NCBI GenBank assembly: GCA_027491085.1
Contig: JAIXWW010000011.1
Location: 433,151-497,150 of the forward strand
Length of the DNA: 64,000 nt
Direction: 5' to 3'
DNA from: Bacteroidota bacterium
GTDB taxonomy: Bacteria; Bacteroidota; Bacteroidia; UKL13-3
Position numbers and translations under genes: made by a program. The notes beneath the pieces were generated by a model. It worked only from the letters and a program-made list of their open reading frames with translations. It searched no databases and had not been told where the DNA came from. This document shows positions 9,832-36,004 of the stretch, one piece after another. The first letter of the stretch is position 1. The number at the start of each line of letters is the position of its first letter.

Positions 9832-10716
9832 ATGGCAGTTTTAGTTAATAACGATTCAAAAGTAATTGTTCAAGGATTTACAGGTAGCGAAGGAACTTTC
9901 CACGCCCAACAAATGATAGAATACGGAACCAACGTTGTTGGTGGTGTTACTCCCGGTAAAGGTGGTCAAACTCATTTAGATAGACCTGTATTTAATACAG
10001 TTAAAGATGCTGTAGAAAAAGCAAGTGCTAATACATCAATTATATTTGTGCCACCAGCTTTTGCTGCTGATGCAATTATGGAAGCAGCTGATGCTGGAAT
10101 TAAAGTAATTATTTGTATTACTGAAGGTATTCCGGTAGCTGATATGATTCCAGTAAAAGAATATATCAAATCGCGCGGTTGTACTTTAATTGGTCCAAAC
10201 TGCCCAGGAGTTATCACTCCAGGACAAGCAAAAGTTGGTATTATGCCGGGTTTTGTTTTCAAATCGGGTAGAGTTGGTATTGTTTCTAAATCTGGTACTT
10301 TAACATACGAAGCAGCTGACCAAATTGTAAAAGCTGGTTTAGGTATTTCTACTGCTATTGGTATTGGTGGTGATCCAATTATTGGAACTCCAACTAAAGA
10401 TGCAGTTGAATTATTAATGAACGATCCTGAAACTGATGCCATTATTATGATTGGTGAAATTGGTGGAAGTTACGAAGCTGATGCTGCACGTTGGATTAAA
10501 GCTAATGGTAATAAAAAACCAGTAGTGGGTTTTATAGCTGGACAAACTGCTCCTGCTGGCCGTAGAATGGGTCATGCTGGTGCAATTGTTGGTGGACATG
10601 ATGATACAGCTGCTGCTAAAATGAAAATTATGGCAGAATGTGGTGTTCATGTTGTTGATTCTCCAGCAGAAATTGGTTCAAAAATGGCTGAAGTATTAGG
10701 CTTAAAAGCTAACTAA
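9832..10716 (+). CDS. sucD: succinate--CoA ligase subunit alpha
   Basis: [24 protein letters not shown]...GVTPGKGG is typical of SucD. 294 aa. Confidence 0.95.
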
Positions 10717-11548: not shown

Positions 11549-12140
11549 TTTTATTTATTTATTTAAACGAAAATACTTATCGGTTGATAATTATTTTGAC
11601 ATCAATTAAATAAATGAAATATAGTAATACATAATTATAATATAACTTCAGATTAACGAATTAACATTCCTAAAATTAGAAAAGAATTTAACCAGAAAGT
11701 TTGGATAAAAGGATAAACAAAATCAGAACCAATTAAATTATAATAATCCCCCAACAGCGATTATTTAGTTTAATAATAAAAGGAACACTTCAAAAAACAA
11801 AACAAAAAGCTTTTAAATGTTTCCTTAGTTACCAATTTTTTTAGGTGATAACAATCCGATTAGCAGTATTCTATATTAATTTGTTTCTAAATCACTGCAA
11901 GTTCTGCTTGCAACTTTCAGGTAATTAATCCAATAAGAGATTCAAACCTTGTAAATAATCCCTTTAAAAAAGTATATTGATTTTTAACTTTGATTCATTT
12001 GATATGAAGTTTAATAATGAATCTAAAGATTAAATCCTTAAATTCATTATTAACGAATCTTATTTATCCGATTATTTTGAAAGTTTCCATTCCTGAATGA
12101 AAACATAATTGAGTTTGCAAGTATGGATATATTTAAATCC

Positions 12141-13550: not shown

Positions 13551-14000
13551 ATGGAGTTAATTTTTAAAGTTGCAGAGATACAAGTAAAATATAAACCTAG
13601 AAAAAAGTTAGGACCCAAAATAGACGACTCAAACGAAGCCGCCACTATCCTGAGAACACACTATAACCAAGATACCATTCACCTTCAGGAAGAATTCATT
13701 GTTTTATATTTAAACAATGCTTCAAATGTTATAGGAGTTTATAAATCATCCGTAGGAGGAATAAGTTCAACCATAGTTGATATTAGAATCATTTTAGCCG
13801 TAGGGTTGAAACTAGCTTGCTCTTCTATTATTCTATCCCATAATCATCCTTCAGGAAATATGAAGCCTTCAAATGATGATATTAGACTTACCAAAAAAAT
13901 ATACGAAGCAGGAAAAATCCTTGATATCATTATCATAGACCATATCATCATATGCTCCAATTCAAAATATTATAGCCTTGCAGAAAATAATGATTTCTAA
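13551..14000 (+). CDS. RadC-like JAB/MPN domain protein
   Basis: JAMM-type motif ILSHNHPSGNMKPSNDD...DHIII in a 149-aa protein. Family is common on integrative elements. Confidence 0.8.
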   Translation: MELIFKVAEIQVKYKPRKKLGPKIDDSNEAATILRTHYNQDTIHLQEEFIVLYLNNASNVIGVYKSSVGGISSTIVDIRIILAVGLKLACSSIILSHNHPSGNMKPSNDDIRLTKKIYEAGKILDIIIIDHIIICSNSKYYSLAENNDF

Positions 14001-16065: not shown

Positions 16066-16623
16066 ATGAATGCTTTTGAGTTTATCATCAACTATAAAAA
16101 ACTATTATCTATGATTGAGCAAGTGGCTCAACCTCAATTCCTGAAATACACATATAAATTAAGGAAGGAAAAACCTTGGTCTTTAATCAAATCTAATACT
16201 ACTTTCAACTCTGAATTAGAAGCTTTGGGGTTTGTATTTTCAAACGTCTTAAATTTGTTTTATGAGGATTTGAAAAACCTTGATTTTGACGATGATGAAT
16301 TTCTATTGTATGCTGATGATTGGTTTATGCAAGCAATGAACCTTGAATTTGGAAAGTCAAAAAATACCTTAAAGGATAACCCTTTAGTTTGGATAACTGA
16401 TTTATCTAGGGACACAAAAAGAAAGGAATTCAACTTTAAAATTGAAGTGTTTTATGATAAAAAAACTAAATCAGTTAAAAAACTAATGGTATCAGGGTTT
16501 AATAAGAAAACCAAAAAGCTTATAGGGTATTCAACTGCAATATTTTTAGGTGAGAATATTGATGATTTAATAAAAGAAATCAATGATATGGCTATTCTTA
16601 TTTTTAAAGAATATAAACCTTAA
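16066..16623 (+). CDS. hypothetical protein
   Basis: 185-aa ORF, no motif recognised. Confidence 0.35.
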   Translation: MNAFEFIINYKKLLSMIEQVAQPQFLKYTYKLRKEKPWSLIKSNTTFNSELEALGFVFSNVLNLFYEDLKNLDFDDDEFLLYADDWFMQAMNLEFGKSKNTLKDNPLVWITDLSRDTKRKEFNFKIEVFYDKKTKSVKKLMVSGFNKKTKKLIGYSTAIFLGENIDDLIKEINDMAILIFKEYKP

Positions 16624-17306
16624 ATCAATCGTTTAACTATTCCTGGACTAAACTCACAACCATTTCTTGTTTTATAACCATTCTCGTTGAGTAGTCTTGA
16701 TATTTGAGAATAATGAACATAACCATTCTTCATCTTAAAATGTTCAATAAATGTTTTAGCCATTTTCCAATTTGGATTTTCTTCTCTATTTCTTTTAACA
16801 GCAACTCTTCCCTTTGCTTTGGCTTCTTCAGTTAAGTTTTGAGGGGACCCAAGTTTTCGTGTTTTCTTTAATTCCTGTAAAGCACTTTTGGTTCTTTGTG
16901 AGATGAGTTCTCTTTCATATTGTGCCATAGTTCCAAAAATACCTAGCGTTAGTGTATTGAGTTCTGGAAGAGCCAAACAATGAAGTTTAACTCCTCTTCT
17001 ATGAATAGCGAATAAAAACTCTACTTCCCTACTTAATCTATCCAATTTTGTAAATAACAAAACATACCCATTCTTTTCGCATAAGTTAAGGGCTTTATCC
17101 AAACCAGGTCTTTGATTGTTCTTTCCGCTCTCTTGTTCTAAAATAGTATTTACCAACGAACCATTATTCCTTGATATAAAATCTAAAATCTGTGTTTGTT
17201 GTTCTTCTAATCCAAGATTTTGTTTTCCTGTGCTCGTTCTAACATAAGCTATATATTTTTCCATTTTCTGATCCTTTTTGCTAATGTAAGGATCCTTTTT
17301 GAACAA
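16620..17306 (-). CDS. serine recombinase (resolvase/invertase family)
   Basis: N-terminal catalytic domain YVRTSTGKQ (catalytic Ser) and LDRLSRE motif, C-terminal HTH. Likely true start is MEKYIAYV at ~17264. Confidence 0.85.
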   Translation of the reverse strand: MFKKDPYISKKDQKMEKYIAYVRTSTGKQNLGLEEQQTQILDFISRNNGSLVNTILEQESGKNNQRPGLDKALNLCEKNGYVLLFTKLDRLSREVEFLFAIHRRGVKLHCLALPELNTLTLGIFGTMAQYERELISQRTKSALQELKKTRKLGSPQNLTEEAKAKGRVAVKRNREENPNWKMAKTFIEHFKMKNGYVHYSQISRLLNENGYKTRNGCEFSPGIVKRLI

Positions 17307-18203: not shown

Positions 18204-19838
18204 ATGGCAAAAAAAGTAAAATCAGTAAGCATTTCGGATGCTGAATCCAAAAAAGAAAGTGGATTATCGGTTGAAGTCACCAATGAACTTATTATCTCTA
18301 GAGAAGAGGTTAATCCAAACAACAATTTATGCAGTCCCTGTAATTATGAAGGTATTAAACGAATTGAACTTGACAGAGAAATTAAATGGGTAAAAACAAC
18401 AGACTTAAAACCATCATCCCATCACATTGAGATTTATTCCGAAGAGAAGATTTTAGACGATGCTCTTATAAACTCAATAAAAAATAAAGGGATAATTACA
18501 CCTTTATTAATTACTTCTAACCATATTATTATTTCTGGAGTTAGGAGATTTAAAGTAGCACTATTGTTAAATATGGAGGTTGTTCCTGTAATTTACAATA
18601 CCAATGATGAATTAAATGTTGCTGATGTTGTATCCAGTAATATTAGTCGCATAAAAAAATATTCGGTTTTATATAAAGAGTACAAAGTATTAAAAAAAGC
18701 ATACGGCATTAGCCAAGGAACTAGAACAGATTTGGTTCATAAGGGAAAAAAATCTCAGGAAAAAATAAACACTATTTTAGGTGTTTCAAGAGCTACCATT
18801 GCACGACTTTGTAAAATAGAAAGATTAGCCTCTCAATTATTTAATTCAGATACGGAAAAGCTAAATGAAATTTGGTCGCAAGTAGATAATCCCAAAAAAG
18901 GAATAATGGCTGTTTTAAGGTATCTTACCAACATAAAACACGAAAGAAACAATTCAAATGGTGAAGTTGAAAATCTATTTGGAAATGGATATACCATTTA
19001 CAATTCATCATCAGCACTAATGAATGAATTGGATTCTAATACAGTTGATTTACATATTACAAGCCCTCCATATTGGGGCGGAATACGAAATTATAACCTA
19101 GGCGAAAATGAATTAGGTTGGGAAAGTAATGTTGATGATTTTGTAAAAAATCTTGTTGAACATTTTGAAGCTACTAGAAGGGTTTTAAAACCAACAGGTA
19201 GCTTGGTCGTAAATTTAGGTGATAGCGTTGATAAATCAAAAAATCATAATGCTCTAGCTCCATTCAGATTTGCTTTAAAAATGGTAGAAAAAGGTTGGCA
19301 TTTAGCAGGCACTTATATTTGGATGAAGCCAAGATTTACACCTTCAACACCTAAAAACAAACCAATTTCAACTTTTGAAATAATATTTCACTTTGGAAAA
19401 AAACCTCAATATGAATTTTATAAAGATTGGATGTCAAATCCTTCAGATCCAATCTATAATCCGCTGATATTTGGAAAACCAAATAAACCAAAATATTTAA
19501 AAGATATCTTTGATTTACGTGAAATAAATGAAGGGGGAATAATTAAATGGAACAGTTCAAATACAACCGAAATTAATAAGAAATGTAAAGAAAGAGGAAT
19601 AGAACAAAACCACAATGCAACTTTCCCTTTAATGATACCCTCTATTTTTATTAATCTAACTACAAAACCCGGTGATTTAGTTATTGATGGGTTTAATGGA
19701 ACTGCAAGCACAGGAGCTGCTTGTCAAGTATTAGGAAGAAACTACGTGGGATTTGAATTGAATAAGAATTACATATCAGTTTCCAAAGTTAGACTTGAAA
19801 GCATTGAAGAAGAATTAAACAATAAAATGGCAGCTTAA
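18204..19838 (+). CDS. ParB-like nuclease domain fused to DNA methyltransferase (N4-C/N6-A, beta-class-like)
   Basis: N-terminal ParB/Srx motif ISGVRRFKVA. Methyltransferase catalytic motif SPPY (HITSPPYWGG). AdoMet motif VIDGFNGTASTGAA. 544 aa. Confidence 0.85.
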   Translation: MAKKVKSVSISDAESKKESGLSVEVTNELIISREEVNPNNNLCSPCNYEGIKRIELDREIKWVKTTDLKPSSHHIEIYSEEKILDDALINSIKNKGIITPLLITSNHIIISGVRRFKVALLLNMEVVPVIYNTNDELNVADVVSSNISRIKKYSVLYKEYKVLKKAYGISQGTRTDLVHKGKKSQEKINTILGVSRATIARLCKIERLASQLFNSDTEKLNEIWSQVDNPKKGIMAVLRYLTNIKHERNNSNGEVENLFGNGYTIYNSSSALMNELDSNTVDLHITSPPYWGGIRNYNLGENELGWESNVDDFVKNLVEHFEATRRVLKPTGSLVVNLGDSVDKSKNHNALAPFRFALKMVEKGWHLAGTYIWMKPRFTPSTPKNKPISTFEIIFHFGKKPQYEFYKDWMSNPSDPIYNPLIFGKPNKPKYLKDIFDLREINEGGIIKWNSSNTTEINKKCKERGIEQNHNATFPLMIPSIFINLTTKPGDLVIDGFNGTASTGAACQVLGRNYVGFELNKNYISVSKVRLESIEEELNNKMAA

Positions 19839-20194: not shown

Positions 20195-21658
20195 ATGACA
20201 AAAGTATCAATCATCTTAATGCCACAAGGTAAAAACTCTAATACGGGTAGAATTTGTAAAATGATTTCAGAAAAAGGAAAAGTCCACAGGTTATCAATCG
20301 GATATACAATACCAATAGACGACTGGTGTGTTAAAACTAAAAGAGTTAAAAATACCAATTCAAATTCAACAATTATAAATTCAATCATAGAAAATATTAT
20401 GTCGGGAGACGTTACTAAACACAAAAAATATGAAGATTGTATTCTATGCTTTATGGAAAACGAGTTGGAATTAGGTCATTTAGATAAAACAATAAAATAT
20501 AGTACTTACAAAAAGTATAATACTATTGCAAAGTCTTTCAGAAAGGCAATGGTGAAATTGGAAATGCTCAAGATAACAATAAACGATGTTATAGGCCTAG
20601 AAAAACTAAAATCAATAATAAGTATCATCTCTATCAACGAAAGTAGAAATGGCAAAAGAAAAACCACCTTAAATAATTATTTGGTGGTCTTTTCTACATA
20701 TGTAAAAAAATGGTTTCAGAAGAATAACGGAAGTCCAACTGCTGATTTTAGCTTTATTCATAAAGAATCAAAAAAAGTGATACTCGGACACGCCAATTAT
20801 ATTACAAAAGATGAACTTACAATATTTGAAAATTATTATCCCAAAGGTATTAAAAATGGAACTATTCAAACAATTACTAAATCCATCTTTCTTAGCCAAT
20901 ATTATATCGGTGGTATAAGAATAAGCGACATTCTAACCCTTACAAATTCACAATTTAAAGCAAAAGGAATACTTATTAGAATGAGGAAAAATGGAGAAAC
21001 AAGAATCTATCCATATTCATTTGAACTCGTATTGGCATTAAGACCACTTTATCCCTACCAATATAACTCAGTAATTGAAAACTTAAATTTAGGGTCAATA
21101 AAATTACCTGCAACAATTGTAGCTGCAATGATTCGTTCTAATATAGAACTCCACAATTATAACTTAGAAGATATTGATAAAAAGATTAGTCAATTAGAAT
21201 ATTCATTATCACTTGAACACAAACAACTTGTTGATGAACTTGAAAGGTTAAAACAAATAATCAAAGGCTTAATTAAAGAAGAGTTTTTCAAACAAATACA
21301 AAACTTAACCGAAGGTTTTATCTTTCCATTGTTAGAATACGATATGTTCAAAAACCATTTAGATAGACCTGATTTATTTGACAAAGATTTAAGCTATGCA
21401 ATCCATAGAGCTACTTGTAAATATAACTCTAATCTGAAAGTCATTTGTAAAACAATAGGAATTAACCGAAAACTAACAAGTCATTCACCCAGACATTCAA
21501 TAGCTCTTCACTTAATGGAAAGGGGAGCAACCACACCCATCATTCAAGATGTTTTAGGACAAAGGAACCTTTCCTCAACGGCTGTATATCTTCAACAAAG
21601 ATTACCTTCCAATAATATTGGTGTGGGAATGGGATTGATACACGGAAGTAAACTGTAA
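20195..21658 (+). CDS. tyrosine-type site-specific integrase (Bacteroidota type with N-terminal arm-binding domain)
   Basis: C-terminal catalytic region HSPRHSIALHLMERG...LGQRNLSSTAVYLQ (R, HxxR, Tyr nucleophile). N-terminus KVSIILMPQGK is typical of Bacteroidota integrases. Confidence 0.9.
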   Translation: MTKVSIILMPQGKNSNTGRICKMISEKGKVHRLSIGYTIPIDDWCVKTKRVKNTNSNSTIINSIIENIMSGDVTKHKKYEDCILCFMENELELGHLDKTIKYSTYKKYNTIAKSFRKAMVKLEMLKITINDVIGLEKLKSIISIISINESRNGKRKTTLNNYLVVFSTYVKKWFQKNNGSPTADFSFIHKESKKVILGHANYITKDELTIFENYYPKGIKNGTIQTITKSIFLSQYYIGGIRISDILTLTNSQFKAKGILIRMRKNGETRIYPYSFELVLALRPLYPYQYNSVIENLNLGSIKLPATIVAAMIRSNIELHNYNLEDIDKKISQLEYSLSLEHKQLVDELERLKQIIKGLIKEEFFKQIQNLTEGFIFPLLEYDMFKNHLDRPDLFDKDLSYAIHRATCKYNSNLKVICKTIGINRKLTSHSPRHSIALHLMERGATTPIIQDVLGQRNLSSTAVYLQQRLPSNNIGVGMGLIHGSKL

Positions 21659-21682
21659 AACCTATTATAGATTTATAAGTAA
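21601..21682 (+). repeat. direct repeat copy 1 (integrase 3' end)
   Basis: ~82 bp, ~95% identical to 27831-27912. A further 15-bp match (cttcatatcatttga) follows after a 61-bp indel. Confidence 0.8.
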
Positions 21683-22010
21683 ATTAAATTACTGCTTATA
21701 TGATTAATATTCAGGAGAGTGCCTATACTATAGACAAAACTAACTTCATATCATTTGAATCTATGTTATTTTGTTATTTTTGTTATTGAATTTATTATGG
21801 TGCTTGGTTTTGAGGAAGCATTTACATAAAAGTATTTTTTTGAAAGGACGTGTATATGTCCACGTAAATTTGACTTTTTTTTATTGCATAATATATTTGT
21901 CAATGATTTCTCGCAAGTAGTTTTATCGATTTATTGCTAATTACCAAAATCATTAGTAGTGGTAAAACAAATGTTCATTGACATGGAGCCAAAATTTATT
22001 TTTTAGTTGA

Positions 22011-22670
22011 TTGGCGATTTTATTAAAACTAAAAAAGAAAATGAATATAACACAAAAAAGAAGCCCATTAAAATCCCTTTTAACGAATTATGATTTCCGA
22101 CATTATCTTAAAGATGGGAGAGTTAAAAAATTAGTTTGGTATTTGCTAGAGCTTGACAAAAAACAAAATATAGAAATAAATGAAGAAATAATTCTAGAAA
22201 TTTATGATAACTTGACGCATTATAAAACTCAAGAAATCTCAGTTCCAAGATTTGTTTATCATGGAAGTCATAATCTGAACAGAGAATCTATACTTTCAAA
22301 AGGCTTAATTGCATTTGAGAATCGTTGTACAGGAGTTTTTGCAAGTATTCCCAATAGTTTCAATCCAATGGAAGCTTCTCATTTTTATCCCTCAGTTTGT
22401 GGCGATACCGACTTATCTGAATCTAATTTAGATTTTTGGCAGATAGATACATTTCAACTACCCCCATTGACTTGGTTTGTCGACCCATATACACCTTCGC
22501 ATAGAAGCCTATGGATTTTCACATTCAATAATATTCCTCCTTTTGCATTAAAACTATACAAGGCAAAAAGAATTGGAAATTACTTAGACAGGTTTTCATT
22601 ATATCCGATTGAAGATGTAAACAGCGAATTGAAAAAAATAAAAAAGAAGAAAATTGAATTGTATTACTAA
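22011..22670 (+). CDS. putative PARP-like (H-Y-E class) ADP-ribosyltransferase domain protein
   Basis: YHGSHNLNRESILSKGLIAF resembles PARP catalytic [22 protein letters not shown] (H-G-S NAD-binding motif). C-terminal Y..IEDVN..LKK resembles the PARP Glu-containing region. Possible real start at Met 22041. Confidence 0.4.
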   Translation: MAILLKLKKKMNITQKRSPLKSLLTNYDFRHYLKDGRVKKLVWYLLELDKKQNIEINEEIILEIYDNLTHYKTQEISVPRFVYHGSHNLNRESILSKGLIAFENRCTGVFASIPNSFNPMEASHFYPSVCGDTDLSESNLDFWQIDTFQLPPLTWFVDPYTPSHRSLWIFTFNNIPPFALKLYKAKRIGNYLDRFSLYPIEDVNSELKKIKKKKIELYY

Positions 22671-23193
22671 AAAAACAAATAGATATAATATGGAAAATCA
22701 GAAAAACGAAAGAAAAATTTTATATATAGACATGGATGGTGTTCTAGCTGATTTTGAATCATCAATTAAAAGATACTTACCTGAATGGGATAACTTATCT
22801 GATGAAGAAAAGGGAGATAGAACCGATGATATTTGCGGTTCAGTACCAAACTTTTTCCTTGAATTGGAACCTATTCATGGAGCATTAGATGCTGTTAAAA
22901 ACTTAGCAGAATTTTTTGATGTTTACTTTCTATCGGCAGCTATGTGGAATGTGCCTGAAAGTTATACAGAGAAAAGACTTTGGATTGAAAAACATTTTGA
23001 CAGCTCTTTTAGAAAGAAACTAATCCTTACACACAGAAAAAACTTAAACATTGGAGATTACTTAATTGACGATAGGACATCACATGGTGCAGGCGATTTT
23101 ATGGGTGAACACATTCATTTTGGAACCCAAAAATTTCCCAATTGGACAGTAGTTGAAGAATACCTAAGTAAAGTGGTTATGAACAATCAATAA
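22654..23193 (+). CDS. 5'(3')-deoxyribonucleotidase-like HAD hydrolase (NT5C family)
   Basis: HAD motif I IDMDGVLADF (DxD), downstream LIDDR aspartates. Overlaps the upstream ORF. 179 aa. Confidence 0.7.
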   Translation: MNCITKKTNRYNMENQKNERKILYIDMDGVLADFESSIKRYLPEWDNLSDEEKGDRTDDICGSVPNFFLELEPIHGALDAVKNLAEFFDVYFLSAAMWNVPESYTEKRLWIEKHFDSSFRKKLILTHRKNLNIGDYLIDDRTSHGAGDFMGEHIHFGTQKFPNWTVVEEYLSKVVMNNQ

Positions 23194-23205
23194 AAAATAA
23201 ATTAT

Positions 23206-23961
23206 ATGAAAATAATATTTCAGCATCCGCCAACAGGAACTAAAGATCCTTTTAAAGATTTTGAACCGTGGAATCCTCGCCATTATCCGAAAGGCGGGGG
23301 AGTTTATATTTATGGATTAAAATTACATATAGATAATGAGCTAAAATTTGTTCCACTTTATGTTGGGAAACATAATACTAATGTTGGTAGAAGAGTATTT
23401 GAACATTATTATCAGGAAAGAATGCCTGGTAATAGCTGTAAAGAAATATTTGATTTAACCAACATTAAATCATTAGATGATATTAGGACTCTTTATGAAG
23501 CCATGAATAAATATGATAGTGTGAAAGGGAAACCTTTAGTTAGGATTAGTAACGAAAAACTGATTTGGTTTAATGATAAAGATTTCTTTAATACATACAT
23601 TTCAAAAAGCTTAGGTAAATATGTCTCTTTAAGTAATTATATATCAGGTTCTGGTCATCTTGCAAGTTTGTATCCAAAAGTTGGCGATTTTGATTCAATG
23701 ATTTCTAAAGATAAAACCATTTCAGAATATATTGATAACCTTCGCAATAAAATAATAGCTACTAAATCCTTATATAATGAAAATTTCTACTATCTCTATG
23801 TAGATAATATTTCCAGAGAAGATCTTTTAATTTATGAAAATTCAACAAAAATTGCCCTACAAGAGCTTGGAATATTTACAACGGCTTGGGCTAATAAAGA
23901 GGGAAATTCATCAATAATAAACTTTGATGAAATTTTTTCTAAGTTGATAAATCTAAAATAA
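23206..23961 (+). CDS. hypothetical protein with N-terminal GIY-YIG-like motif
   Basis: GGGVYIYGL...PLYVGKHNTNVGRRVFEHY matches the GIY-(10-11)-YIG...R...E pattern. 251 aa. Confidence 0.4.
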   Translation: MKIIFQHPPTGTKDPFKDFEPWNPRHYPKGGGVYIYGLKLHIDNELKFVPLYVGKHNTNVGRRVFEHYYQERMPGNSCKEIFDLTNIKSLDDIRTLYEAMNKYDSVKGKPLVRISNEKLIWFNDKDFFNTYISKSLGKYVSLSNYISGSGHLASLYPKVGDFDSMISKDKTISEYIDNLRNKIIATKSLYNENFYYLYVDNISREDLLIYENSTKIALQELGIFTTAWANKEGNSSIINFDEIFSKLINLK

Positions 23962-24064
23962 ACGTTTAAAGTGATGATGTTGCTTAAAAATCAGTTTGAT
24001 ATTTTAATTTAGAAATTCCAATTAGTAAAAAAAAGACATTTAAATATTTTAAAATACAACATAT

Positions 24065-24973
24065 ATGAAAACTACAAATTTTGAAGAAATCTTAAAGAAA
24101 GTTGAAACCTTATTTAATACTCACCAAATGAACCTAACTGGTACGTCCAACTATGAGGATAAAAGTGGTATTTTTTTCCATAAACTCGAACAAAAAGTTA
24201 TTCCAATTTATTCCCAAGATGAACTTATTAAATTTAAAGAGGGAGAACCATCACCTATTCTAGGTGCTTATTTAATTGAAACAGAATCTAACCCACGCTT
24301 TATGCTCTTTAATGATTCAATAAACGATTTGAGTATAAAATATGCTGATGAAAGGTCAGTCATTAACGGAGTGGATATTAGAAATTCGTCAGGGTTTATT
24401 ACAGCTGAACATCCAGATCCACCAGGCCTTTATCCTGAGGAAGCCAAAAACCGCATTGAAATTATAGTAAAACTTCAACTCCATATTTTTCATACTCTTC
24501 ATTATGCTTTTGGAGCATGGAAAACTCCCTTTTTTACAGAATTAAGCATAAGTTATATAAATAACTTAGTTAATTGTATTACAAAAAGAACTATTAATGA
24601 TGATAAAAATTTACTAGACTGCTACGCCTATATAAACAAAATTCCTGCTGAAGAACTAATTATCGAAAATTATTCTCAATTTTCAAAATATATTTTTGCC
24701 TTTGACCAATCCGATTGGAAGGAGATAGTTAATCTAGGCGTCTTAATTAATAAAATTCCTGAAAGCATTTGGAGTGGTTTTGTTCAAGCAAAACCAAAGG
24801 TAGCATTAAAAGACTATTTGTTAGATCATAAATCAGAAATTCAAGATTCATTTATTAATTGGGCAAAGAATAATACAGATGAACAACCTTTCTCTAAAAT
24901 TAAAGAATATTTAACTATTGAAAATACTGAAAAGTATCGTGGTAGTATAAAAGCAGGAGGATTCGGTATATGA
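24065..24973 (+). CDS. hypothetical protein
   Basis: 302-aa ORF, no motif recognised. Stop overlaps the next start. Confidence 0.4.
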   Translation: MKTTNFEEILKKVETLFNTHQMNLTGTSNYEDKSGIFFHKLEQKVIPIYSQDELIKFKEGEPSPILGAYLIETESNPRFMLFNDSINDLSIKYADERSVINGVDIRNSSGFITAEHPDPPGLYPEEAKNRIEIIVKLQLHIFHTLHYAFGAWKTPFFTELSISYINNLVNCITKRTINDDKNLLDCYAYINKIPAEELIIENYSQFSKYIFAFDQSDWKEIVNLGVLINKIPESIWSGFVQAKPKVALKDYLLDHKSEIQDSFINWAKNNTDEQPFSKIKEYLTIENTEKYRGSIKAGGFGI

Positions 24974-25632
24974 ACTCCCTCACCCTCATAGAACAATCTG
25001 GGTTCAAAATCAATCCACCTAAAATTGTATTTGTGCCATTTACAGAAGAAAAACTTCAAGGGATTAGCACTAGAGAGTTTGGTAGTCCTTACGAAAATAT
25101 GGATGACAAAATTGGTGGCAATTTGTATTTATGGCTGCAACAAACCAATTCTGTTTTATGGCAAATAAGTGATGAACAGGTATTGATTTTTGCAAATACA
25201 GTTGAAAAGTTAGGTGAGCGTTTTGCCACACTAATGAAGTTACCAAAAGAAGAGGGTAAAGCGGTATGTATAGAAATGGTTAAATCCTTAGCCATTTCTA
25301 CTTATATTATTGAAAATAGTATCTTTAAAATACAAGGCAATTGGCTGTTAAAATACCGCAATAAAGAACTAGGGGGTACTCTTCAATACTTCTTGCTTTG
25401 GCTCACCAAACATGAGCTTCAAGGGAATATTCAAGCCAACAAAGCCTTGGATATTTACATCGAAAAATTTGCCAAGAATGTTAATTTGGATTTGTTTAGT
25501 AATTACCCTTCAAGTGAAATTATGGAGGCATTTATTTATTGCTTTTTTAGAGGAAATAACGAAACAAAAATGCTATTTGCTAAACTAGAAAATCCTAACT
25601 ATTCTCTAAATGAACTCATTACTATTCCATAA
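24970..25632 (+). CDS. hypothetical protein
   Basis: 220-aa ORF, translationally coupled to the previous ORF. Confidence 0.4.
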   Translation: MNSLTLIEQSGFKINPPKIVFVPFTEEKLQGISTREFGSPYENMDDKIGGNLYLWLQQTNSVLWQISDEQVLIFANTVEKLGERFATLMKLPKEEGKAVCIEMVKSLAISTYIIENSIFKIQGNWLLKYRNKELGGTLQYFLLWLTKHELQGNIQANKALDIYIEKFAKNVNLDLFSNYPSSEIMEAFIYCFFRGNNETKMLFAKLENPNYSLNELITIP

Positions 25633-26077
25633 TAAAAGCACAATGAATTCAGATAAATGGAAGATTTATGTTAATGGCTATAAAAATGAAATAGACCTAT
25701 ACCATCGTATTGATAGTGATTGGCTAGAAGGGGGTATAAAATTATATTTGGGAAATGAGGAATATAGCATTCCCTTAAGTCTATTATTAGTGGAAGAGTT
25801 ACATGATTTTCTCAATTGGTTAATAAAAAAACAAAGTGGTATTGAAACCATTCCAATTTTTCAATTTATGGATACAGAACTTTGTTTTGAAACAGTTACT
25901 TCAGATAATGAATTTTATTTAAAATTGAATTTAAACAGAATCAATAAAAAGCAAATCTCTATAATATCGCAAATTTCAGGACCTCAGTCGGAAATGCGTT
26001 CAATAATTGAAGAATTAAACTCGCTAATAACTAAATATCCTTGCCGTTGTAACAATCAACATATTATACTTAAATAA
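25610..26077 (+). CDS. hypothetical protein
   Basis: 155-aa ORF overlapping the previous ORF. Ends convergent with the NT5C-like paralog. Confidence 0.35.
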   Translation: MNSLLFHNKSTMNSDKWKIYVNGYKNEIDLYHRIDSDWLEGGIKLYLGNEEYSIPLSLLLVEELHDFLNWLIKKQSGIETIPIFQFMDTELCFETVTSDNEFYLKLNLNRINKKQISIISQISGPQSEMRSIIEELNSLITKYPCRCNNQHIILK

Positions 26078-26618
26078 TAAGTTTCCCTTTATTTTTTGGT
26101 TCAAATGTTTCAGGCCAAAACACTTCATAATTATCAATTAGGTATACCAATACTTTGTCCCAGTCTTTAAACTCCTCACTGCCTAAAGGAATGAGTTCAT
26201 TTATAAATTTATCCGAACCATTATTTCCTTTGCGGTCTATCAAATAATGGCCCACTTGCAAATCTTTTCTGTGGCTTAAAATTAGTTTTTTTCTAAAGTT
26301 TTCTCCAAAGTGATTTTCAACCCAAATTCTCTTATCAGTATACATATTGGGTATATCCCAACAAGGCGCAGAAATAAAATAAATATCGTAAAAATTACTC
26401 AAGCTATTAATGGATTGAATAGCAAGATTGATAGGTGATAGATTTTGATAATAATGAGGGTATTCTAAATATACGTTTTTAAGGGCAACTTCTTTTTCTG
26501 TTTCAAATAAATGCTCCCAATTATTTACTCTTTTCATTACATTATCAGAAAGATCAACCACTATATCGTCAAGTTCTATTAAGAGTAGTTTTTTACGTAA
26601 AGTTACTTTCTTTATCAT
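26070..26618 (-). CDS. NT5C-like HAD paralog, probably catalytically degenerate
   Basis: Clear paralog of 22654-23193 (YFISAPCWDIPNMYTDKRIWVENHF...KKLILSHRKDL versus YFLSAAMWNVPESYTEKRLWIEKHF...KKLILTHRKNL). Motif I is IELDD instead of IDMDG. Confidence 0.6.
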   Translation of the reverse strand: MIKKVTLRKKLLLIELDDIVVDLSDNVMKRVNNWEHLFETEKEVALKNVYLEYPHYYQNLSPINLAIQSINSLSNFYDIYFISAPCWDIPNMYTDKRIWVENHFGENFRKKLILSHRKDLQVGHYLIDRKGNNGSDKFINELIPLGSEEFKDWDKVLVYLIDNYEVFWPETFEPKNKGKLII

Positions 26619-26629
26619 ATGGCTAAGTT

Positions 26630-27187
26630 TTAAAATTTAATAAAGTTTTGCAACCAGATAGTGGCACATTCAAAACGATTTTTAGAATTACCTAAAACTA
26701 CTTTTCTAACTGAAGTGTGAGTTAAGTTGGGGTTCAAGATGTTTGATCTGTGTCCTCTACTTTGTGAAGAGTAATCTATTAAAGCTATTAAGATTGAGGC
26801 TCTAATGCTAGTACCATATGTGATATTTTCACCTATACTTTTGCAAGGGATTTTCAACCATGAATAAGTTCTATCGTGATCCATATCTCTTTTTGTGCTA
26901 TCCGCTAAGTGTTTGTTAGCTTCTTTACGAACTTCCTCAGAGATTTTGTAAGCAGGAAGGGGTTTCATTGAATCCAACAATGGGATAAGTTCCTTGATAG
27001 CTATTTCTCTTTCTGGTGCAAATCTTGTTGAATTTGCGTAAGCTTTAACATATTGAATGTAAGCTTTAGGATTGGTTCTTATCAGGTTGATTTCGTTTAT
27101 GTATGCCAGTTCTTCTGCTGAATGTTGTCCAAAACAACAAATAGGTGCAAAAAAAATAAATATAACTATGTTTCTTATTTTGTCCAT
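26630..27187 (-). CDS. secreted CAP-domain (YkwD-like) protein
   Basis: Signal peptide. SRGHRSNILNPNLTH matches the bacterial CAP/YkwD signature GHR.NILNP. Confidence 0.6.
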   Translation of the reverse strand: MDKIRNIVIFIFFAPICCFGQHSAEELAYINEINLIRTNPKAYIQYVKAYANSTRFAPEREIAIKELIPLLDSMKPLPAYKISEEVRKEANKHLADSTKRDMDHDRTYSWLKIPCKSIGENITYGTSIRASILIALIDYSSQSRGHRSNILNPNLTHTSVRKVVLGNSKNRFECATIWLQNFIKF

Positions 27188-27744
27188 GATCTGTTAAGGT
27201 ATATATGAAAATCAGTATAAATATCCTTTAATAACTTAATATCTCTTCGCAAGGTTCTTTCAGTAACTTGGTTTTCTTCACAATATTTATCTATATCTAA
27301 TTGTCTATTTTTTAACGTAGAAACATATAAATTAATTATTCTTCTATACTTTTGAAGCATTAGGCTTTGCCTATTTGATTGTTGCCGAATAAAATCTTTC
27401 TTATTCATAATTATCTTATCTAAACCCTCCAATTTTTCATTTATTATAATAGTATATTTTTTAATTGAACTATCTAATTTTAAATGAGGTGCTCCAATAA
27501 GGACTATAGATAATTCGTTAATTTGTTCATAGGGTACTATTTGATTAAAGTCTTCCAAAATTTTTTCATTTAGTAAATTAGAATCTACAATTATCAAAAA
27601 TGAAGGAACGGCAATAAAATCTTCAATTTTGGTAACCTCATAGTATTCAATGTCACTTTCTGATTTAATGGTTTTTAACTGTTCAATTAATAACTCATTT
27701 TTACTATAAATAAGGATTGTATTCTCTTTGTTAAATTGATTCAT
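27175..27744 (-). CDS. putative transcriptional regulator (receiver-like N-terminus, C-terminal HTH)
   Basis: C-terminal VTERTLRRDIKLLK resembles a DeoR/HTH_11-type helix-turn-helix. Overlaps the CAP gene by 13 nt. Confidence 0.4.
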   Translation of the reverse strand: MNQFNKENTILIYSKNELLIEQLKTIKSESDIEYYEVTKIEDFIAVPSFLIIVDSNLLNEKILEDFNQIVPYEQINELSIVLIGAPHLKLDSSIKKYTIIINEKLEGLDKIIMNKKDFIRQQSNRQSLMLQKYRRIINLYVSTLKNRQLDIDKYCEENQVTERTLRRDIKLLKDIYTDFHIYLNRSWTK

Positions 27745-27830
27745 ATTTCGAAAATAATGCTATTTTCAATTATTAAAAGTTTATTAGGTCCTATATTTGT
27801 CCATTATACCATTTCATAAACTATTTTTCT

Positions 27831-27927
27831 ATTACCTTCCAACAATATTGGTGTAGGAATGGGGTTGATACACGGAAGTAAACTGTATAACCTATTATAG
27901 ATTTATAAGTAACTTCATATCATTTGA
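27831..27927 (+). repeat. direct repeat copy 2: remnant of an integrase 3' end (no integrase ORF attached)
   Basis: Encodes ...PSNNIGVGMGLIHGSKL, matching the last ~19 codons of the integrase at 20195-21658, then a shared downstream segment. Confidence 0.8.
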
Positions 27928-28094
27928 GTATAAGTTAAACACATCTTTTCTAAAGTTAATTAAACCCTCCGAGGATTGATAATGGAATTCAATGGATTTT
28001 GGATACTTCTTTACTATTTTAGAATCCCTAATCCAATTTCAGAATAAATGTATAGTGAGAAAAGTAAATTCCTAAATTGATTTTAACTGTGTTC

Positions 28095-33237: not shown

Positions 33238-33639
33238 GTGACAAAATATTATAATGTAACCTTGTGTATGCATATCGGCTTACGAATTAAGATTGCTAGA
33301 ATTAGTAAAGAACTTAAGCAAGAGGAGCTTGCAGAAATGATAAATAAAACACGCCCTCTCATTTCAAGTATAGAACAAACAGGTAAAGCCAGCCATTATA
33401 CATTAAAGAAAATATGTGAAGTTTTGGATTTAGATATCAATGAATTAGAGTCTTCAGTTGTATCCGAATCATCAGAATTAAACGTCAATCAACGTGAGCA
33501 ATTATTAAGTTTAAAAAATAGAATAAAAGAAATAGAAGAGGACAATGATAACTTAAGGTCACTTGTTTCTGCACAATCAGAATTAATAAAAAAACAAAAG
33601 GAATTCATTAATAAACAAAGTAAAAATCTTAAATTTTAA
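33238..33639 (+). CDS. XRE-family HTH transcriptional regulator with coiled-coil tail
   Basis: IGLRIKIARISKELKQEELAEMINKTRPLISSIEQ is a Cro/C1-type HTH. Sits adjacent to the island right end. Confidence 0.7.
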   Translation: MTKYYNVTLCMHIGLRIKIARISKELKQEELAEMINKTRPLISSIEQTGKASHYTLKKICEVLDLDINELESSVVSESSELNVNQREQLLSLKNRIKEIEEDNDNLRSLVSAQSELIKKQKEFINKQSKNLKF

Positions 33640-33860: not shown

Positions 33861-33932
33861 GGCCTCATAGTTCAATGGATAGAATAGATGTTTCCTAAAC
33901 ATTTGATATGAGTTCGATTCTCGTTGAGGCTA
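33861..33932 (+). tRNA. tRNA-Arg (anticodon CCT)
   Basis: Manual cloverleaf: acceptor GGCCTCA/TGAGGCT (G1-U wobble), D-stem GTTC/GAAT, anticodon stem GATGT/ACATT with loop TTCCTAA (U33, anticodon CCT, A37), T-loop TTCGATT. Confidence 0.8.
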
Positions 33933-33951
33933 CTATTATTAATTAGAGTAC

Positions 33952-34399: not shown

Positions 34400-36004
34400 A
34401 TGATAATAATGCCATTTAAAAAGAGTTATTTACTTAGTGCGTTTAGCATAATTACTACTTGCGTAAGTGCTCAAAAAAAAGCACCCGAAAATTGGTTTAA
34501 TTTGGACCCAAAAGATAATAAAGTATATGGTGTAAGTACCGAAAAAACGTACAATGAATTATTAAAAGGTAAAAAACCTAATCCAGTAATAGTAGCTGTA
34601 ATTGATGGGGGAACCGAGGTATCTCATATTGACTTAAAAAATGTAATTTGGTATAACTCAAAAGAAATTGCAGGTAACAAACAAGATGATGACAATAACG
34701 GATATATTGATGATATAAATGGGTGGAATTTTATAGGAGGGAAAGATACCAATGTGGTTCAAGACAACTTGGAGATTACTAGAATATACAATTCCTATAA
34801 CAAAAAATTTGCTGGTTTGACTGAAGCCGAAGTTTTAAATTCAGATAAAGATGAATATAAATTATATAAAAAAGCTGAACTTATTTATAAAAAAAAATAT
34901 GAAAATGCTGAAAGATTATACATGGTTTACAGCAAAATTGAAGAAAGTATATTAAAATTAAAAACCTATTTAGGTACTGATAAGCCAACTATAGCACAAA
35001 TAAAAACTTACCCTGCAAAAGAAACATTTGATAAAATAGCATTAGATAATGTATTGATAACGGTTAAACAAAATAAAAGTATCAATGATTTACTTGTTGA
35101 AATTGGTGAAGGAAAAAATTATTTTAAAACACAATTAGATTATCACTTAAGCAAGGATTTTGATAGCAGAAAAATTATTGGTGATAATTATGCAGATTTA
35201 ACTGAAAGTATTTACGGCAATAATTATGTAAGTGGTCCCAAAGGTGATCATGGTACCCACGTAGCTGGAATAATAGCTGCAACCCGAAACAACAATAAAG
35301 GTATAAATGGAGTTGCCGATAATGCGCAAATAATGATTTTAAGGGTTGTTCCTGATGGTGATGAAAGGGACAAGGATGTAGCAAATGCAATAAAATATGC
35401 TGTTGATAATGGTGCTAAAATTATTAATATGAGTTTTGGCAAGGCATTATCTCCAAACAAAACATATGTGGATGAAGCTATTAAATATGCAATGGATAAA
35501 GATGTATTGGTAATACATGCAGCAGGAAATGATAACCAAAATATTGATACTATAGAAAATTATCCTACTGCTAGGTATTATAATTCTGAATTAAGCGCAA
35601 GGGCTTGGATTGAAGTAGGAGCTTCAAGTTGGAAACAAAAAAAATACCTTACGGCAACATTTAGCAATTACGGAAAAAAAACAGTGGATGTTTTTGCACC
35701 AGGAGTTGATATTTATTCATGTATTCCTGAAAGTAAATATGCTACTTTTAACGGTACAAGTATGGCCGCTCCTGTGGTAGCAGGTATGGCCGCTGTTTTA
35801 CGCTCTTATTTTCCTGATATTACTGCCGAGCAAACTAAAAGTTTGATTAACGAATCAGCAATTAAGTATAATAAAAAAGTATTTATTCCAAGTACAAAAG
35901 TAAAGGTAAAACTGTCGGATATCTGTATTACAGGAGGCATTGCAAACTTATACAATGCGGTACAACTAGGTATAAAAAAAGGCTACAAACTATCAGAAAA
36001 ATAA
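34400..36004 (+). CDS. secreted subtilisin-like serine peptidase (S8 family)
   Basis: Catalytic triad motifs VAVIDGGTE (Asp), HGTHVAGIIAA (His), GTSMAAPVVAG (Ser). Signal peptide. Confidence 0.9.
   Translation: MIIMPFKKSYLLSAFSIITTCVSAQKKAPENWFNLDPKDNKVYGVSTEKTYNELLKGKKPNPVIVAVIDGGTEVSHIDLKNVIWYNSKEIAGNKQDDDNNGYIDDINGWNFIGGKDTNVVQDNLEITRIYNSYNKKFAGLTEAEVLNSDKDEYKLYKKAELIYKKKYENAERLYMVYSKIEESILKLKTYLGTDKPTIAQIKTYPAKETFDKIALDNVLITVKQNKSINDLLVEIGEGKNYFKTQLDYHLSKDFDSRKIIGDNYADLTESIYGNNYVSGPKGDHGTHVAGIIAATRNNNKGINGVADNAQIMILRVVPDGDERDKDVANAIKYAVDNGAKIINMSFGKALSPNKTYVDEAIKYAMDKDVLVIHAAGNDNQNIDTIENYPTARYYNSELSARAWIEVGASSWKQKKYLTATFSNYGKKTVDVFAPGVDIYSCIPESKYATFNGTSMAAPVVAGMAAVLRSYFPDITAEQTKSLINESAIKYNKKVFIPSTKVKVKLSDICITGGIANLYNAVQLGIKKGYKLSEK

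Follow-up and report, generated by a model that had tools for sequence, protein, structure and literature searches.

An ADP-ribosyltransferase-fold protein of an uncatalogued family on a recombinase-associated cargo segment of a freshwater Bacteroidia genome

The gene and its cargo segment

We analyzed a 64,000-nucleotide stretch of a Bacteroidota bacterium genome (Bacteroidia, UKL13-3; assembly GCA_027491085.1, contig JAIXWW010000011.1, positions 433,151 to 497,150), hereafter called the window, and within it a small gene whose product is well supported as a member of the ADP-ribosyltransferase (ART) superfamily. The initial annotation had read the open reading frame (ORF) at 22011–22670 (+) as a PARP-like protein with an H-G-S motif, a catalytic Glu near the C-terminus and a nucleotidase neighbor, located on a mobile element. 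The ORF is present, and the mobile-element setting was borne out: the gene adjoins a tyrosine recombinase gene and lies inside a repeat-bounded segment. The mechanical ORF starts at TTG 22011 and encodes 219 aa; ATG 22041 is the likely start, because the distant relatives P0003–P0006 all begin at the aligned Met. Since the N-terminus, as read from the sequence, has no hydrophobic stretch, the protein is probably cytoplasmic.

The ART gene is the first gene of a cargo segment of ~6.2 kb bounded by 87-bp direct repeats, which is laid out as follows (+, forward strand; −, reverse strand):

20195–21658 (+): tyrosine recombinase (integrase); Pfam Phage_integrase E 8e-16, Arm-DNA-bind_5 below threshold
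21601–21687 (+): left 87-bp repeat, covering the final 19 codons and the stop codon of the integrase gene and another 27 nt
21744–21768: 25-bp motif following the left repeat
22041–22670 (+): ART-fold protein, coding sequence of 209 aa from ATG 22041
22690–23193 (+): NT5C, a HAD-type 5'(3')-deoxyribonucleotidase, 19 nt downstream of the ART gene and co-directional with it, with an intact DMDGV (DxDxV) motif
23206–23961 (+): protein B, 251 aa, no family
24065–24973 (+): 302-aa protein
24970–25632 (+): 220-aa protein
25610–26077 (+): WapI-like immunity protein (Pfam)
26070–26618 (−): second NT5C, 38% identical to the first
26630–27187 (−): CAP-like secreted protein, its N-terminus resembling a signal peptide by eye
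27175–27744 (−): 189-aa protein
27831–27917 (+): right 87-bp repeat, 94% identical to the left one, encoding the same 18 residues LPSNNIGVGMGLIHGSKL, with the stop codon mutated
27913–27937: 25-bp motif following, and overlapping, the right repeat

The same integrase–ART–NT5C order is found on the contig of a close relative (P0002). A second related locus (L010), on the Bacteroidia metagenome-assembled genome contig JBIIBC010000026.1, encodes a 100% identical ART protein and shares with the window positions 21737–23320 (98.6%), 24962–27387 (91%) and 26613–27872 (99%). It has neither the integrase nor either flank in common with the window, the homology stopping 42 bp into the right repeat, at 27872. 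In the middle of the segment (3922–5194 of L010 versus 23206–24973 of the window), the protein B allele is only 33% identical, and a 139-aa gene takes the place of the 302-aa gene. The shared arms, different flanks and swapped middle therefore mark the ~6.2-kb block as a transferable, internally recombining cargo segment. Inside it, alleles or cassettes appear to have been exchanged locally between arms that are 91–99% identical. The two NT5C paralogs face each other across the variable middle, and this layout is the same in the P0002 contig and L010.

The nucleotidase neighbor proved genuine (Pfam E 6.5e-15; cdN/mdN entries of the PDB, 4e-17), but its adjacency to the ART gene occurs only in near-identical copies of the element. 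NT5C was accordingly rejected as an obligate partner: the two genes adjoin only where the copies are at least 88% identical (the window, L010 and the P0002 contig), and NT5C is absent beside homologs that are 42–45% identical. The latter (L004, L006–L008) adjoin homologs of protein B and the CAP-like protein in differing orders and orientations, one lying near a WapI-like gene and another near a NADAR gene, three genes from the P0005 homolog. A three-gene system of ART, protein B and CAP-like protein was likewise weakened as a candidate, as the three co-occur in three lineages with varied order and orientation. One locus (L092) carries B, CAP-like, 220-aa, WapI-like and D-like genes without an ART gene, and loci found through protein B hold the B, 220-aa, WapI-like and CAP-like set without the ART gene, with cpYpsA or NADAR instead. 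Since related islands can lack it, the ART gene is an optional member of a mosaic island and not part of a fixed operon.

Protein B itself belongs to a family of 250–300-aa proteins (relatives P0085–P0135; loci L092, L094 and L096) with no Pfam or PDB match and an invariant N-terminal motif, HPPTGT..P..DF.P...HYP...G.YIYG. In islands of Bacteroidota, its members are found repeatedly next to NADAR, cpYpsA, WapI-like and CAP-like genes. A GIY-YIG nuclease assignment for protein B, suggested by eye from GVYIYG...PLVVG...R...HY, found no support in Pfam or PDB profile searches.

The segment lies within a larger low-GC island at ~12000–34000. The GC content is ~27–30% between ~12 and ~34 kb, as against 32–35% outside, and the island is flanked by housekeeping genes and a tRNA-Arg gene, extending from a succinyl-CoA ligase gene (9832–10716) to tRNA-Arg (33861–33933) and a subtilase gene (34400–36004). 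A third copy of the 25-bp motif, inverted and with 3 mismatches, is located at its left edge (11985–12009). The island also holds genes for RadC (13551–14000), a serine resolvase (16620–17306) and an HTH_3 regulator (33238–33639), as well as Fib_succ_major and DUF6175 genes. At 18204–19838 (+), shortly before the integrase gene, lies an ORF for a 544-aa protein in which a ParB N-terminal domain is joined to an N6/N4 DNA methylase; fusions of this type are common on phages and conjugative elements.

Fold and conserved residues

The fold of the protein was predicted with AlphaFold2 (AF2) from a family alignment of 85 sequences, on which all conservation counts below also rest. The model reached a predicted local distance difference test score (pLDDT) of 80.9 and a predicted template modeling score (pTM) of 0.80; from four close homologs only, the pLDDT was 37 and the model unusable. 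The 85-sequence model has a core of six strands, the first of them followed by a helix; three helices of low confidence stand at the N-terminus, and a strand and a helix close the C-terminus. The sheet is split in the strand order 4-5-2 / 1-3-6 of the ART core. The elements of the protein discussed here are:

22224–22574 (+): ART-fold core, residues ~62–178 (strands 71–77, 99–103, 130–136, 145–147, 157–161 and 170–177; helix 78–87)
22248–22316 (+): strand 1–helix 1 motif RFVYHGSHNLNRESILSKGLIAF, residues 70–92, assessed by alignment column counts
22431–22484 (+): family-specific acidic/aromatic signature, D131-x-W133-x-I135-D136-T137 in strand 3 and W145...D148 at the end of strand 4
22602–22646 (+): C-terminal stretch YPIEDVNSELKKIKK, residues 188–202, a subfamily-specific tail outside the domain

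A Foldseek search of the PDB returned Tpt1/KptA structures as all of the top 18 matches, and a search of BFVD returned small uncharacterized phage proteins, some of them annotated as RNA 2'-phosphotransferase, DarT or PARP-domain proteins. The search-table figures for the model were 7.3 for the DUF952 protein CC0527, 6–7 for pertussis-like ArtA, TreX, CARDS, DarT and Scabin, and 5.0 for PARP15. Profile comparisons converged on the same branch. Searched against PDB sequences, the family profile matched only Tpt1 (best E 4e-4) and DarT1 (E 0.05), and when the trimmed core was compared by hhalign with seven aligned Tpt1 C lobes, 87 columns aligned at a probability of 93% (E 3.4e-7). Individual family members matched Pfam PARP (two relatives, E 0.004), DUF3990 (E 5e-5) and a PHROG RNA 2'-phosphotransferase family. 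The window protein itself stayed below threshold with both Pfam PARP PF00644 (12.1 bits, cut-off 26.7; residues 67–93 only, E 0.14) and Pfam PTS_2-RNA PF01885 (12.6 bits, cut-off 26). PARP, DUF3990, PTS_2-RNA and DarT share the Pfam ART clan (PMC7955679). The structure and profile matches therefore give good support to ART-superfamily membership of the window protein, with the NAD+ lobe of Tpt1 as its nearest branch. An ART had indeed been proposed at this locus; the His-class ART fold stands, while the PARP-like reading in the H-Y-E sense does not.

PARP1 carries Ser or Thr at H+2, Ile at H+10 and Gly-Leu at H+14/15 relative to its His. The by-eye register of H-x-S...I...GL against PARP was correct in all of these positions, which are spaced in the same way in Tpt1 (PMC6333775). 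In CthTpt1, the adenosine is contacted by His101 and Thr103 (ribose 2'-OH), Ser110 (adenine N1), Ile111 (stacking) and Gly115 (N6) (PMC6333775), and residues His74, Ser76, Ser83, Ile84 and Gly88 of the window protein correspond to them with identical spacing. Conservation across the alignment was as follows:

His74: 85/85
Gly75, the Gly of "HGS": 3/85
Ser76: Ser or Thr in 81/85
Arg81: 84/85, family-specific
Ser83: 49/85
Ile84: 85/85
Gly88: 85/85
Columns 95–96, around the Arg121 equivalent: not conserved
Position 100, in strand 2: Phe in 78, Tyr in 4 and Trp in 2 of 85
Asp131: 84/85
Trp133: 83/85
Ile135: 85/85
Asp136: 76/85
Thr137: 78/85
Trp145: 83/85
Asp148: 85/85
Position 157, at the start of strand 5, equivalent to the PARP catalytic Glu: variable (K18, L11, N9, D9, S8 and others)
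Thr161: 82/85
Pro166: 77/85

The near-invariant residues are kept despite an overall identity of 20–35% among family members. For the proposed H-Y-E triad, these counts sustain the His and neither of its partners, the Tyr site being mostly Phe and the Glu site variable. The Gly of "HGS" is rare in the alignment. The C-terminal Glu fares no better: YPIEDVNSELKKIKK, in which it had been placed, falls in a gap in 48 of the 85 sequences, position 191 is Glu in nine of the 37 that align there, and the three closest divergent relatives (P0004–P0006) have R, K and I instead. The Phe/Tyr at strand 2 and the variable Glu site together define the signature as H-[F/Y]-x, which is neither H-Y-E nor H-H-h.

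The essential tetrad of CthTpt1 consists of Arg18, His19 and Arg68 in the N-terminal RNA lobe together with Arg121, and its pyrophosphate is caged by Arg121, Arg139 and Arg140 (PMC6333775). The RNA lobe is absent from the family, and residues 1–60 of the window protein form the three low-confidence helices, without a conserved Arg or His. The D131...D148 signature residues are candidates for catalysis or substrate binding, and Asp148, Asp136 or Arg81 may take part in catalysis; that Arg81 stands in for the Arg cage of Tpt1 is a guess. Arg81, the signature residues, Thr161 and Pro166 make up a conserved set peculiar to the family.

Relatives in uncultured phages

A word-indexed search recovered three close relatives, 74–98% identical and all unnamed metagenome proteins, and 63 remote relatives at E ≤ 1e-3 emerged when 1.84 billion cluster representatives were scanned exhaustively with HMMER. 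Their common core spans query residues ~60–176, and many relatives are 114–140 aa long, consisting of the ART core alone. None of the relatives carries a Pfam domain or a name, and the window protein matched no Pfam, NCBIfam, PHROG or PADLOC family at threshold. A tblastn search with the target and three distant members found no match in 50,697 GenBank phage records, and a scan of IMG/VR with one subfamily yielded at least 80 loci on viral contigs from lakes, many of them on contigs of 100–370 kb. The family is therefore real, so far seen only in uncultivated organisms, and uncatalogued. The window gene belongs to a previously undescribed family of the ART superfamily, carried mostly by uncultured lake and freshwater phages; newness is judged here against Pfam, NCBIfam, PHROG and PADLOC.

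Two apparent relationships were discarded. A 395-member paralog cluster around the phage genes was an artefact of single linkage, with the ART motif in only 76 members. A phmmer match of residues 79–151 (nt 22275–22493) to the T1 domain of the Aplysia Shaw K+ channel (E 8.5e-5), with the pattern FxxRxxGVFAxI...YPxxVCG...LxFWxID...W, disappeared with the family profile, and the fold is that of an ART; the match is probably a chance similarity confined to a subfamily-specific insert.

The phage relatives occur in varied neighborhoods. One neighborhood (L001) has genes for split topoisomerase II and ribonucleotide reductase, and here two ART-like paralogs stand in tandem (7321–7998 and 8001–8672); another (L002) has T4-type gp2, portal and prohead protease genes, and in a third (L003) the relative lies within arrays of small unannotated genes. 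In the IMG/VR loci, some copies of the domain stand alone and others form part of proteins of 531–1057 aa that also contain other repeated small modules (e.g., L037 4716–6311 and L041 3753–6809). The L037 protein ends in a domain with an HExxH motif (FHETAHQYQ).

A shared leader of approximately M-N-L-Q-E-x-I-R-R-I-L-[KR]-E-E starts 186 of 1256 ORFs in the phage ART neighborhoods (IMG/VR loci L012–L091; e.g., L072 4938–5351, L026 4944–6851 and several ORFs of L025); as a control, the same pattern occurred 3, 0 and 8 times in later 30-residue windows. In most phage ART-domain proteins, the leader immediately precedes the domain, as in MNLQEHIRRVLREELYSPSGDEYTPGKFVVHKSN. It contains L/I-x-E, the motif after which the T4 prohead protease gp21 cuts (PMC9026906), and in T4 an N-terminal capsid-targeting sequence of 10 residues suffices for proteins to enter the head, from which they are injected (PMC9026906). 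Given a leader with a gp21-type cleavage motif, the phage members would be packaged and injected effectors like T4 Alt. The leader would tag a large arsenal of unrelated proteins as a capsid-targeting, propeptide-like sequence.

Proposed activity and comparison with known systems

We favor, at about even odds (a probability of roughly 0.5), an NAD+-using mono-ADP-ribosyl transferase in which an acceptor nucleophile or an invariant Asp takes the place of the Glu, and which acts in phage–host or inter-element conflict. The protein would bind NAD+ and transfer a single ADP-ribose to an acceptor. The acceptor may bring its own nucleophile, for instance a phosphate carried by a nucleotide or by the end of a nucleic acid, as with Tpt1, or else another group, as with Glu-less mono-ART PARPs; alternatively, an invariant Asp (148 or 136) might replace the missing Glu. 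In phages, the domain behind the leader would be packaged into the capsid and injected as T4 Alt is, and the window copy would have been captured beside a tyrosine recombinase on a transferable segment in a freshwater Bacteroidia. Its biological role would lie in conflict between mobile elements and cells.

Several observations weigh against this assignment. No conserved acidic residue occupies the catalytic Glu position of PARPs and toxins among the 85 sequences, the pyrophosphate Arg cage of the Tpt1 type is not conserved in place, and an invariant His with adenosine-binding residues is equally expected of a non-catalytic NAD+ or ADP-ribose binder. Default hhalign of the untrimmed alignment covered 34 columns at 81%, limited to strand 1–helix 1, and the sequence similarity elsewhere is weak. 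No gene partner is conserved family-wide. The suggested capsid targeting by the leader comes from a motif resemblance, and the window protein has no leader, bearing instead a helical N-terminal extension of ~60 residues.

More tentatively, the protein may be the founding bacterial example of a new H-[F/Y]-x ART clade with invariant Arg and Asp residues, packaged behind a cleavable leader and injected by T4-like and jumbo freshwater phages, captured by Bacteroidia on recombinase-associated cargo cassettes, and with a chemistry unlike that of PARP or Tpt1. Its acceptor might be, for example, the phosphate of a nucleotide or nucleic acid, or else a protein of the host or the phage, with an Asp in strand 3 or 4 serving instead of the canonical Glu.

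A non-catalytic NAD+ or ADP-ribose binder, serving as a sensor, sponge or immunity/decoy protein in an island of immunity-like genes, is a rather doubtful reading that nevertheless deserves consideration. It would account for the absence of both a conserved acidic residue at the catalytic site and the phosphate-binding arginines of Tpt1 (PMC6333775). The surrounding cargo resembles a patchwork of unconnected genes for immunity or defence, the WapI-like one included, related islands carry NADAR and cpYpsA and can be without an ART gene, and the recombinase followed by co-directional low-GC genes recalls the orphan-immunity clusters of rAID-1. Such a binder is harder to reconcile with at least nine near-invariant polar or aromatic residues outside the adenosine site, more than a simple pocket usually needs, and enzymatic activity is found in Glu-less ARTs such as Tpt1 and the mono-ART PARPs. 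The phage copies join the domain to enzymatic-looking modules and place it behind a leader typical of injected proteins; given this context, an effector fits better than a sponge.

True RNA repair of the Tpt1/KptA type, in which the protein would remove 2'-phosphates or cap 5'-phosphates after the action of nuclease toxins and NT5C would process the products, is unlikely. WapI is the immunity protein for the WapA tRNase toxin of B. subtilis, and a WapI-like protein is encoded in the same cargo segment. Tpt1 is also the closest structural and sequence relative of the protein, the H-H-h clade acts on phosphate acceptors and in RNA repair (PMC9503650), and HAD enzymes are associated with a parallel, sirtuin-centered phage RNA-repair system (PMC9503650). 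The score against PTS_2-RNA, however, is less than half the cut-off, three of the four tetrad residues lie in the missing RNA lobe, the Arg121 equivalent is not conserved, and Phe occupies the place of the second His. The Pfam scans revealed no RNA ligase or 2H phosphoesterase gene near the ART gene, and NT5C adjacency is limited to the near-identical elements.

We consider it quite improbable that the protein is a DarT-like toxin ADP-ribosylating nucleic acids, with a neighboring gene as its antitoxin. NADAR enzymes reverse guanine ADP-ribosylation, and the NADAR gene near the P0005 homolog would fit such a pair, but in other loci NADAR tracks protein B and not the ART gene. Pfam scans found no macro or NADAR domain in the window cargo ORFs scanned, there was no PADLOC match, and the loop between strands 4 and 5 has no conserved Glu. 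Finally, the H-Y-E reading, a PARP-like protein ADP-ribosyltransferase in which His74 and a Tyr in strand 2 would be joined by Glu191 as the catalytic residue, can be set aside as very improbable: the motif register, the sub-threshold Pfam PARP match, the two PARP-matching relatives and weak structural matches to PARP10/14/15 speak for it, and the Phe at the Tyr site in 78/85, the variable Glu-equivalent site and a Glu191 that is outside the domain and not conserved speak against it.

ARTs are central weapons in phage–bacterium and bacterium–bacterium conflict, as exemplified by T4 Alt and Mod, DarT, CmdT, AcrIF11 and Tre1, and to our knowledge every new ART active-site configuration has so far come with a new class of target. 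That phages and mobile islands carry ARTs is well established (PMC9503650); what is new here is an uncatalogued family signature, an architecture reduced to the Tpt1 NAD+ lobe, a leader-tagged phage context, and capture in a recombinase-associated cargo segment. The family offers a minimal NAD+-lobe scaffold of ~115 residues without the catalytic Glu, a testable connection, in uncultured T4-like phages, of a leader common to many genes with delivery by the capsid, and an example of a ~6-kb cargo whose exchange site lies within the 3' end of an integrase gene. Were the protein inactive, it would simply add to the divergent ART-fold proteins that mobile elements carry.

By its layout, the cargo segment resembles the rAID-1 clusters (Ross et al., bioRxiv 10.1101/471110), a likeness that stops short of a class assignment: a tyrosine recombinase is followed by six co-directional genes at ~30% GC, including one for a WapI-like immunity protein, with segment exchange and, in the window, repeats at the 3' end of the recombinase gene. 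The definition of rAID-1 clusters asks for an XerD-like recombinase on the 5' side with an identity of 44% or more to BF9343_RS08045, followed by at least two co-directional low-GC genes, immunity-family genes among them. They belong to gut Bacteroidales, are integron-like and have repeats between cassettes, whereas the window comes from a freshwater Bacteroidia, its repeats were seen only at the two ends of the 6.2-kb segment, and only one of its cargo genes matches a known immunity family.

The phage branch, and this branch alone, recalls T4 Alt in its leader with L/I-x-E common to adjacent genes, its T4-like genomes and a gp21-type protease; T4 Alt itself is an ART of the R-S-E clade with no detectable sequence relationship to the window family. 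In their large multi-domain architecture, the phage ART fusions resemble polyvalent proteins, which combine ART and zincin domains (PMC5512222). DarT has an adjacent macro-domain antitoxin, which the Pfam scans did not find in the window, and a catalytic Glu, which is not conserved in the window family. PARPs are His-class ARTs with the same strand 1–helix 1 register and, as in the window family, an aromatic residue in strand 2. The mono-ART PARPs of the H-Y-hydrophobic type (PARP10/14/15) also lack a Glu at strand 5.

The closest comparison is with Tpt1/KptA, which has the same six-strand core, the same H-x-[ST], Ser-Ile and Gly-Leu adenosine positions and no catalytic Glu, and whose C-terminal '...T...IP..[AY][LI]' strand motif aligns with the window family. 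Tpt1/KptA possesses a winged-helix RNA lobe, the Arg-His-Arg-Arg tetrad and the pyrophosphate Arg cage, all three of which the window family is without; its second His is Phe in the family, which has an insert of 25–30 residues between strands 2 and 3. Unlike Tpt1, the window family carries its own set of invariant residues: Arg81, Asp131, Asp136, Asp148, Trp133 and Trp145.

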